From the NCBI GenBank assembly GCA_964016885.1, contig OZ024740.1, positions 191,766,001-191,830,000 on the forward strand: a stretch of DNA of 64,000 nt, written 5' to 3'. The notes beneath the pieces are model-generated. The model worked only from the letters and a program-made list of their open reading frames with translations. It searched no databases and had not been told where the DNA came from. The translations under genes were made by a program, and so were the position numbers. Positions 20,656-23,260 of the stretch are shown piece by piece; position 1 is the first letter of the stretch, and each line of letters opens with the position of its first letter. The DNA is from Eledone cirrhosa. Lineage: Eukaryota.

Positions 20656-21030
20656 GAATTTTTTCAGTGCTCCAGAATTTAGTCCTCGCTAGCTTTATTC
20701 CATCCACTGAATTATTAATTTTATATGGGTTCCTAGTGTCCGCGCATTGCCTGGGAACTTAGCTGAGAATATACTCCCTGATGACGTAATGAATTCTCTA
20801 TAGTTATATTATGTAACTATATTTATCCCATTACAGAAACTAATTAGTTGGAGTGAAAATTTTAGTAAGTAAGTTGATTTTTAATTTTTAAAATTTTCTT
20901 ATTTTACGTCTTTCATATAATTGTTCTGCATCCCCCTCCATAGAACCATATAGGTACTAAGACATAACTTATATATTTGCTAGCATGAGTGAACATCTGT
21001 ACGCATATGGTGGTAGATGTACTAATTCTC
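20656..21030 (+). repeat. Diverged inverted copy of the 535-bp HHR tandem family
   Basis: reverse-complement similarity to the 21951-22486 unit. Confidence 0.8.
20773..20854 (+). ncRNA. Type I hammerhead ribozyme
   Basis: ACTCC-CTGATGA-CGTAATG...(internal hairpin ATAGTTA/TAACTAT)...CATTACA-GAAA-CTAATTAG-TT-GGAGT. Confidence 0.85.
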
Positions 21031-21950
21031 TTCTCTCTCTCTCTCTCTCTCTCTCTCTCTCTCTCTCTCTCTCTCTCTCTCTCTCTCTCTCTCTCTCTCT
21101 CTCTCTCTCTATATATATATATATATATATATATATATATATATATATATATATATATATATATATATATATACATATATATATATACATATATATACAT
21201 ATACATATATATAAATATATGTATGTATATATATATATATATATATATATGTATATATATATATATATATATATATATATATATATATATATATATATAT
21301 ATATATATATATATATATATACACACATATATATATATATATATATATATATATATATATATATATATATATATATATATATATATATAAGAATGTATAT
21401 ATATATATGTATATATATATGTATATATATATATATGTTTGTTATATATATATATATATAATAAAAATGGTGTGTTGCGTGGTTGCACATGAATAAAATT
21501 AGTCCTTCATCAGTGATCTTCCAACCTACATTCGTATTTCATCGCTTTATATATATATATCCACACGTATTATGGTAGCTAAGATGCGTCCATAGGCGGT
21601 ATGCAAGTTGAGCAATCTATGCTCCGACAGACTAGATTATTATGTAATAGAAAACGAAGAATCAGTGATGCATCTGAACTCAATTTACAACGTGTTCCAA
21701 TTGCTTCCCCGGCAAATAGCTCGATGTTCGATATGTGTGTCGATCTAACTTGACTCTGGATTCCTTGAGCTGTACCCCGGGGAAATAAATGTAACACGTA
21801 ATAAATCGAGTTCAGAGGCACCAGTGATTGTTCGTTTTCCATTTTATATATATATATATATATATATATATATATATATATATATATATATATATATATA
21901 TATATATATATATATATATATATATATATATATATATATATATATATATA

Positions 21951-23260
21951 TAAAGAATTAGTATATCTACCAACATATATATACAGATGTATACCTATGC
22001 TAGCAAATATATAGGTTTTGTCTTAGTATCTTTGTGGTTCAATGCAAGTGGATGCAGAACAATTATATGAAAGACGTAAAATAAGAAAATTATAAAAAAA
22101 TTACTTTCTTACTAAAATTTCACTCCAACTAATTTGTTTCTGAAAGGGAATAAACATGGTTTCCGATTGGAACAACATGGAGAAATATCCTTTCGTCATC
22201 AGGGAGATCTGTTCTCAGCTAAGTTCCCAGGCAAAGCGTGGACACAGGGAACTTATACAAAAATAATTCAGTGGATGGAAAAAAGCAAGCGAGGACTAGA
22301 TTCCAGGACACTGAAAAAATCACTGCCTACTTAGTCGGTGCCGAATTTAAAAGAATCAATCACGTGACATCGAGGTCAATCAGTGAGGAGTGAGGGCGCT
22401 AATAAGACAGTAGCCTGGCTATCACTATGAAGCATAGCAGTAGTTTTGGCAAATTTTTGATCAACAAAATAATTTGGAGATAATTATAAAGAATTAGTAT
22501 ATCTACCAACATATATATACAGATGTATACCTATGCTAGCAAATATATAGGTTTTTTCTTAGTAACTTTGTGGTTCAATGCAAGGGGATGCAGATCAATT
22601 ATATGAAAGACGTAAAATAAGAAAATTATAAAAATTTACTTACTTACTAAAATGTCACTCCAACTAATTAGTTTCTGAAAAGGAATAAACATGGTTTCCG
22701 ATTAGAACAACATGGAGAAATATCCTTTCGTCATCAGGGAGATCTGTTCTCAGCTAAGTTCCCAGGCAAAGCGTGGACACAGGGAACTTATACACAAATA
22801 ATTCAGTGGATGGAAAATAGCAAGCGAGGACTAGATTCCAGGACACTGAAAAAATCACTGCCTACTTAGTCGATGGCGAATTCAAAAGAATCAATCACGT
22901 GACATCGAGGTCAATCAGTGTGGAGTGAGGGTGCTAATAAGACAGTAGCCTGGCTATTACTATGAAGCATAGCAGTAGTTTTGGCAAATGTTTGCTCAGC
23001 AAAATAATTTGGAGATAATTATAAAGAATTAGTATATCTACCAAAATATATATACAGATGTATACCTATGCTAGCAAATATATAGGTATTGTCTTAGTAA
23101 CTTTGTGGTTCAATGCAAGGGGATGCAGAACAATTATATGAAAGACGTAAAATAAGAAAATTATAAAAATGTACTTACTTACTAAAATTTCACTCCAACT
23201 AATTAGTTTGTGAAACAGCATGGAGAAATATCCTTTCCTCATCAGGGAGATCTGTTAGTA
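21951..23260 (-). repeat. Tandem array, 535/536-bp unit (2.4 units), one HHR per unit (22123-22206, 22658-22741, degenerate 23193-23249)
   Basis: Unit starts TAAAGAATTAGTATATCTACC at 21951, 22487 and 23022. Minus strand of unit 2: CTCC-CTGATGA-CGAAAGG...CTTTTCA-GAAA-CTAATTAG-TT-GGAG. Confidence 0.9.

Follow-up and report, generated by a model that had tools for sequence, protein, structure and literature searches.

A tandem repeat in the genome of Eledone cirrhosa, within the 64,000-nucleotide stretch of contig OZ024740.1 that we analysed (the window), raises the question of how a unit that encodes no evident protein came to be copied, and of whether the hammerhead-like motif in each unit matters to the copying. 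The original prediction for this DNA proposed a tandem family of approximately 535 bp in which selection acts on ribozyme structure in a non-coding mobile unit. The spacing of the predicted cut sites (23197, 22662, and 22127) gives a period of 535, and the longest ATG ORF in six frames is 59 aa, bearing out both the size and the non-coding character of the unit; GC content is 0.33 (positions 22001-24000). We conclude, with a probability of roughly 0.8, that the family is a non-autonomous non-LTR retrozyme that carries a Penelope-type minimal type I hammerhead and depends for its copying on the reverse transcriptase-endonuclease of a Penelope-like element (PLE), probably of the Hydra clade.

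The insertions and their hammerhead motifs

Direct reading of the region shows two insertions of one repeat family (Table 1). The original prediction took the motif at 20773 for an inverted copy in the tandem. It belongs instead to a separate, 5'-truncated insertion: approximately 900 bases of microsatellite and other repeats separate it from the tandem, and its identity to the tandem is 76-81%, whereas to 39 other loci among the matches listed it is 94-97%. On the basis of these identities, we assign positions 20656-21029 to an independently inserted sister subfamily, subfamily B.

Table 1. Positions in the window of the two insertions, their hammerhead motifs, and adjoining microsatellites.
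Feature	Positions	Strand	Remarks
Subfamily A insertion	21950..23256	-	2.4 copies head-to-tail: 5'-truncated copy and two full 535-nt units; 3' end at distal terminus (site 2), merging into (TA)n
Unit 1 hammerhead	22123..22206	-	Core and stem II intact; palindrome mutated (U15.3 to A); predicted cut after 22127
Unit 2 hammerhead	22658..22741	-	Core and palindrome intact; private G-U at stem II pair 5; predicted cut after 22662
Truncated-copy hammerhead	23193..23249	-	Broken: 27-nt deletion in stem II, G12 to C
Inverted piece of subfamily A element	23255..23297	+	Short; end is proximal terminus (site 1)
(TA)54 tract	21845..21952		Adjoins site-2 end of subfamily A tandem
(TA)24 tract	23298..23345		Adjoins site-1 end of inverted piece
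Subfamily B insertion	20656..21029	+	Separate, 5'-truncated, ~375 nt; ends at site 2
Subfamily B hammerhead	20774..20853	+	Intact; stem I 20774-77/20850-53; core 20778-84; stem II 20786-91/20829-34, distal helix beyond; GAAA 20836-39; palindrome 20839-48; predicted cut after U17 at 20849
(TC)41-42 tract	21027..21110	+	Between subfamily B end and (TA)n target; candidate template-slippage product
(TA)n-rich tract	21110..21460		Directly after (TC)n

The motif has a type I layout, in which a 4-bp stem I leads into CUGAUGA and one extra base precedes a 6-bp stem II. Stem II starts with G-C and continues through an internal loop into a distal helix; it is followed by an extra A, GAAA, a 10-nt palindrome, and a GUU triplet. 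Its core is kept in two of the three tandem motifs of the window. Unit 1, on the reverse strand, reads CUGAUGA-C-GAAAGG...CCUUUC-A-GAAA, and the subfamily B copy, on the forward strand, reads CUGAUGA-C-GUAAUG...CAUUAC-A-GAAA; pair 2 of stem II thus differs as A-U vs. U-A and pair 5 as G-C vs. U-A, and both stems and both double compensatory substitutions are exactly as originally quoted. The palindrome, described at the same time as shared by these copies, is CUAAUUAG in unit 2 and in the 20773 copy; in unit 1 it is CAAAUUAG, and there the description fails. Unit 2, which had been singled out for a dimer cleavage test, is the copy with the private G-U pair in stem II. Rfam returns no hammerhead match for the motif at the gathering score, nor at E up to 10; the hammerhead assignment rests on the core motif and on covariation.

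Other hammerhead-bearing repeats lie nearby. Positions 50027-51464 hold a very recent-looking tandem with a 468-nt period and 100% identical copies, plus an inverted copy, and its compact motif has a GUU cut at 50292 (-), 50662 (+), and 51130 (+). A third hammerhead family, with a period of ~420-430 nt, a U-U mismatch at the helix II base, and a GUA cut, occupies positions 20255-20611 and 25544-27189 (motifs at 20313 (-), 25633 (-), and 26518 (+)); one of its copies adjoins the subfamily B copy. The subfamily A insertion is adjoined by a tandem of a ~695-nt unit at 23339-25545, with a hammerhead-like motif (23840 (-) and 24535 (-)) that has a palindromic helix III. Single hammerhead-like motifs of other families are found at 47589 (-), 34332 (-), and 32303 (-). 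Positions 9440-10344 and 28708-29542, which hold a fragment of a Pif1 helicase (PF21530) next to a repeat of 233 nt, and a 172-nt tandem, we take to be Helitron-like.

Covariation and selection on the fold

An 18-mer that extends from GAAA through the palindrome to stem I has 9,628 exact occurrences in the 3.0-Gb genome, vs. 0 for its reversed control, and the motif is therefore not a product of chance. Copies were sampled at 130 loci, 60 found by similarity and 70 by 18-mer position (first 54 Mb of contig C1), and motif filtering led from 186 complete motifs to 182 with flanks, 132 full over the region, and 125 kept (7 of 132 rows dropped for non-homologous flanks). Each position of the catalytic core (CUGANGA, GAAA, and the NUH triplet, here GUU) is kept in 120-125 of the 125 copies, and the G-C pair at the base of stem II (G10.1-C11.1) is kept in 121, in a fold with a 6-bp proximal stem, a distal helix, and a 4-bp stem I.

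On a tree of the 125 copies (209 columns outside the ribozyme), all four changes of proximal stem II on shared branches are double and Watson-Crick (C-G to U-A, U-A to A-U, U-A to G-C, and G-C to U-A), whereas 18 of the 20 private changes are single (12 mismatch, 6 wobble), the 2 private doubles both occurring in the lone subfamily D member of the tree (Fisher p=0.0014 for shared vs. private). Coincidence of changes on the same branches has P ~0.0015 per pair even before complementarity is required, and among 1,485 pairs of variable columns outside the ribozyme there is no fully coincident complementary change. The core, the two extra bases (C/A), and the palindrome show 0 shared changes at 22 sites, vs. 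0.92 per site outside, a comparison to be read with the points that 52% of outside columns are also free of shared change and that conservation of the 3' half is partly built in, because loci L061-L130 were found by the exact 18-mer; 8 of the 22 sites are not fixed by that search pattern.

Pair counts were obtained for 41 representative copies, in which 95.2% of cells are paired and 7 of 15 pairs have a two-sided change, 5 of the 7 lying in the distal helix, which the original prediction had not included. The covariation score is 0.358, vs. 0.012-0.079 when partners are slid; 33 of 500 shuffles reach the observed number of pairs with two-sided change, pair-type diversity is not above that of shuffles, and two of five shuffle measures are unexceptional. 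Subfamily D, which proved to be real and to carry a stem I pair change of its own (U-A), contributes G-C and U-A to stem II. The proximal stem has few shared double changes, 4 in all or 6 with subfamily D included.

A satellite array of the same family on contig C5, extending over at least 84.650-84.727 Mb (at least 77 kb) with a period near 526, and ending at the normal site 2 in (TA)n (loci L296-L299 and L306-L309), shows what happens to the motif under another mode of amplification. Core and palindrome are intact in 27 of the 105 array units sampled vs. 100 of 121 among dispersed copies whose retrieval did not use the exact 18-mer, a difference whose p-value is not to be taken at face value, since the units of one array are non-independent; identical breaking changes turn up in as many as 22 of 69 units, and stem II is altered in 23 of the 105 units, in no case with compensation. 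Most ribozymes of the array are broken, and DNA-level amplification therefore does not keep the fold. Toward its right end the array has an excess of core-breaking changes (5 of 20 core sites vs. 34 of 447 outside, p=0.019), from which, as it concerns one locus with non-independent units, we claim no selection against the ribozyme.

An array of this size is what would be expected if the family were a satellite-like repeat amplified at the DNA level, its apparent covariation arising from hairpin-templated repair or from a few founder events, and template switching in inverted repeats can indeed produce double changes. However, stem II changes in the array are uncompensated and its core breaks recur, the conserved core is unpaired and thus unexplained by hairpin repair, and dispersed copies combine inversions and ragged 5' ends with 3' ends at fixed sites. 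Insertion anatomy already disfavours this account, which we consider scarcely credible.

The results indicate that the family is likely a parasitic retroelement, a retrozyme, with a selected fold, since it combines about ten thousand copies with matched-pair stem changes between lineages, and that the RNA fold was likely under selection while the family spread. Selection acted on amplifying source lineages and not on copies after insertion; private changes break pairs freely. The original proposal of selection on ribozyme structure is thereby supported, through the tree test, the pair counts in 41 copies, the further subfamilies, and the unconstrained satellite array, and the covariation in the larger alignment exceeds what was originally noticed, each of the four shared stem II changes being paired.

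Insertion ends and the route of copying

Terminal copies end at one of two sites in 80 of 85 cases, 39 at ~55 nt and 41 at ~170 nt beyond the predicted cut; almost all of these ends lie in (TA)n. An inverted piece is present in 27 of 55 insertions. The 5' ends are scattered: an apparent pile-up at the cut site was an alignment artefact, and remapping places 1 of 151 within 3 nt of the predicted cut (positions +17 to +36 are unreliable in A/T tracts). When checked for target-site duplication, both insertion ends lie inside (TA)n, and both share 4-5 nt of TA with the target. The insertions thus have PLE hallmarks: partial tandems, 5' truncation, an inverted 5' piece, a tail, and a microsatellite target. 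By analogy with the anole element described in PMC11167929, the two fixed ends would correspond to two reverse-transcription start sites. The fetched loci contain 83 tandem units, with periods of 519-571 nt and one of 478. The unit is also found as many contigs in three runs of unrecorded type from one sample, which are uninformative on expression.

We propose that a tandem locus would be transcribed; that two hammerheads would pair through the 10-nt palindrome, forming a double hammerhead, and cut after GUU; that the released unit would be ligated into a circle; and that a PLE protein would nick (TA)n and prime at either terminus, reverse transcription round the circle, or along an uncut multimer, then giving 1 to 3 units and frequently a second cDNA in inverted orientation. 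New subfamilies would arise only from lineages whose fold was intact, which would explain why shared changes are compensated and later private ones are not. Transcription, cleavage, ligation, and rolling reverse transcription are borrowed here from the retrozyme model as outlined in PMC7229834. Cofolding of two subfamily B motifs predicts the double-hammerhead layout (-47.4 vs. -37.8 kcal/mol for two monomers). The motifs of units 1 and 2 are not more stable than shuffles (z 0.08 and 0.88); circular unit monomers are (z -3.6 and -4.2; 40 shuffles). Counting against the proposal, the available accounts report poor in vitro cleavage by PLE minimal hammerheads (PMC4209133), no cleavage by 8 of 9 Xenopus retrozyme dimers (10.64898/2026.07.22.740005), and dispensability of the anole Poseidon hammerhead for in vitro insertion (PMC11167929).

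An alternative is that the hammerhead-shaped fold owes its selection to a role in binding protein, or as a template structure, for the PLE reverse transcriptase, with cleavage absent or incidental and with uncut linear multimers as templates. The 5' ends agree with this alternative, in that they do not cluster at the cut and, ignoring the cut site, fit an uncut multimer as well as a circle, and so do the minimum-energy fold of the single motif, which pairs the core with the palindrome and is predicted to be inactive, and the fixation of U17 rather than of the faster C17 or A17; in the account of the anole PLE, insertion continues when the hammerhead is mutated, and none of the RNA reads stopped at the cut (PMC11167929). 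The absence of shared change at any catalytic-core position or in the palindrome argues against it. So does position 17, which, genome-wide, is U in 9,628 occurrences and variant in 95 (49 A, 32 C, and 14 G by hand count): A17, which remains cleavable, marks a dispersed sublineage, but no dispersed sublineage has changed to the uncleavable G, and 8 of the 14 G17 sit in the C5 array (PMC3138052 lists GUU as cleavable and GUG as uncleavable). Fifteen locus-only variants are common to all copies of an insertion, vs. 0.4 expected, as would fit a single unit-length template, although this point is weak, since undersampled sublineages would give the same. We consider a purely structural role unlikely.

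A separate trace of the priming step may be present at subfamily B ends. Internal tandem junctions of subfamily B mostly read TTCTCTATA, with more than two TC units in 0 of 20, and 26 of 40 terminal copies (loci L031-L060 among them) have 5 to 57 TC units ahead of (TA)n. Subfamily A reads TTCTTTATA and has at least 5 TC units at 0 of 40 ends; subfamily C has (TC)n at 1 of 16. The (TC)n is found only at terminal ends of sublineages with TCTC in the template, and, because the opposite end, where visible, lay in (TA)n, it seems to have been made at or after insertion. Template slippage at priming, a stutter of the reverse transcriptase, is suggested as the simplest reading; later slippage beside the long (TA)n may be the source instead. 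Template slippage at priming is known for some LINEs, and, judged from titles and abstracts, the literature contains no account that we could find of (TC)n writing by PLEs.

The partner element and known relatives

The genome contains PLEs that could supply the protein. A Neptune-type PLE, its clade named from the linker motif, has an intact 784-aa frame (RVT_1 and GIY-YIG), and no hammerhead was seen in it with a motif descriptor. A Hydra-type PLE has an intact 849-aa frame (L232 and L233), missed by Pfam, with RWR, DKT, and CxCX5C motifs, which are among those given by Craig et al. (PMC8557442). It has a hammerhead either side of the ORF, a long helix II mismatched at its base, and a GUU cut, and its two (TA)n ends lie ~100 nt apart, the same two-end spacing as in the 535-nt family. 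These features favour a Hydra-clade partner, which we consider somewhat more probable than a partner of another kind. The partner search covered one Neptune-type and two Hydra-type families, and no sequence link to an autonomous PLE was found in 60 loci of two PLE families or in 15 longer PLE loci; a BLAST match to the 3' region of a Hydra PLE was AT-rich low complexity.

The window itself contains PLE remnants. A broken Hydra-type PLE lies at 42315-46512 (-), with frames at 45565-46512 and 44529-45422 and a hammerhead at 42315. Positions 11983-12390 hold a GIY-YIG remnant of a Neptune-type PLE, whose relatives (L221-L228) include many intact 784-aa frames, suggesting recent activity. Further PLE endonuclease remnants lie at 35027-35485 and 14153-16844 (GIY-YIG match at 35027).

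The matching end geometry of the Hydra PLE of the same genome could also mean that the units derive from an autonomous PLE, as remnants of its terminal repeats or as short deletion products, and that the covariation was selected there and merely inherited. Xenopus retrozymes are derived from PLE terminal repeats by Li et al. (10.64898/2026.07.22.740005, as far as available), and the genome has many PLE families beyond the three compared. Against this derivation, each subfamily has its own head-to-tail tandems of 519-571 nt, and 262 hammerhead copies (~3% of all) have no shared upstream extension outside the family, ORF-bearing or other, on the element. We regard it as very improbable.

The retrozyme reading places the family among the metazoan non-LTR retrozymes, which, as described in PMC7229834 and 10.64898/2026.07.22.740005, likewise consist of low-GC, non-coding units in tandem that have a type I hammerhead apiece, reach thousands of copies, have a weak palindromic helix III implying dimer cleavage, and coexist with PLEs; the mismatch at the helix II base is as in axolotl HHR_Amex2 in the same accounts. 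The unit of 519-571 nt is longer than the 150-450 nt given in PMC7229834 and within the 51-972 nt given in 10.64898/2026.07.22.740005. In contrast to the retrozymes of those accounts, insertions here have mostly 1-3 units, with inversions, and two fixed 3' ends, a feature absent from the retrozyme descriptions in the available portions of the two papers. A plant LTR retrozyme has a type III hammerhead in two LTRs, whereas the family has type I topology and head-to-tail units.

Comparison with PLE hammerheads and PLE insertions gives a similar picture. As in the PLE minimal hammerheads of PMC4209133, helix II is long, helix I is short, and a base lies between positions 9 and 10.1; the hammerheads in that account have a palindromic helix III and depend on dimers, and the palindrome here allows a predicted dimer. 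Compensatory changes in PLE hammerheads were also already noted there, in 2014. In contrast to the hammerheads described in PMC4209133, the motif here has an invariant extra A before G12, opposite an extra nucleotide (C or A), has a helix II lengthened by an internal loop and a second covarying helix (~50 nt in all), and occurs in a non-coding unit rather than in a recognised PLE terminal repeat. Hydra-clade PLEs as described in PMC8557442 also insert into (TA)n, as partial tandems with inverted 5' pieces and with a tail at one end, and have a hammerhead near the 3' end, but the family has no ORF, its tail is ~110 nt vs. 30-40, and it has no sequence homology to the two Hydra families of the genome compared. 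The anole Poseidon element PAc, in the account of PMC11167929, shares AT-rich targets and two internal reverse-transcription start sites that define a tail; PAc, however, starts at a non-homologous site, whereas ends here share TA with the target, and PAc has a ribozyme dispensable in vitro, whereas the core here appears selected.

Non-LTR retrozymes and their connection to PLEs are thus already in print (PMC7229834 and 10.64898/2026.07.22.740005, in the parts available), and the supplements of the cited papers may list the family or its host. We conclude that the family is new within a known kind, with unusually clean evidence of pre-insertion selection. The role of the hammerhead in PLEs is called unclear in the available text of PMC8557442 and PMC11167929. 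With copies in the thousands, paired stem changes in several subfamilies, and an unselected control of its own, the family makes the need of cleavage for spread testable by genomics together with assays on natural variants. Tentatively, and at less than even odds, we advance a two-part proposal: that an active hammerhead is required for PLE mobilisation, contrary to its in vitro dispensability, lineages that spread having kept core, palindrome, and cleavable triplet and the DNA-amplified array having lost them; and that the PLE reverse transcriptase, a relative of telomerase, stutters at priming where its template reads UCUC, writing new (TC)n microsatellites. If (TC)n is written at priming, PLEs would be a direct source of microsatellites, through a step resembling telomerase repeat addition.
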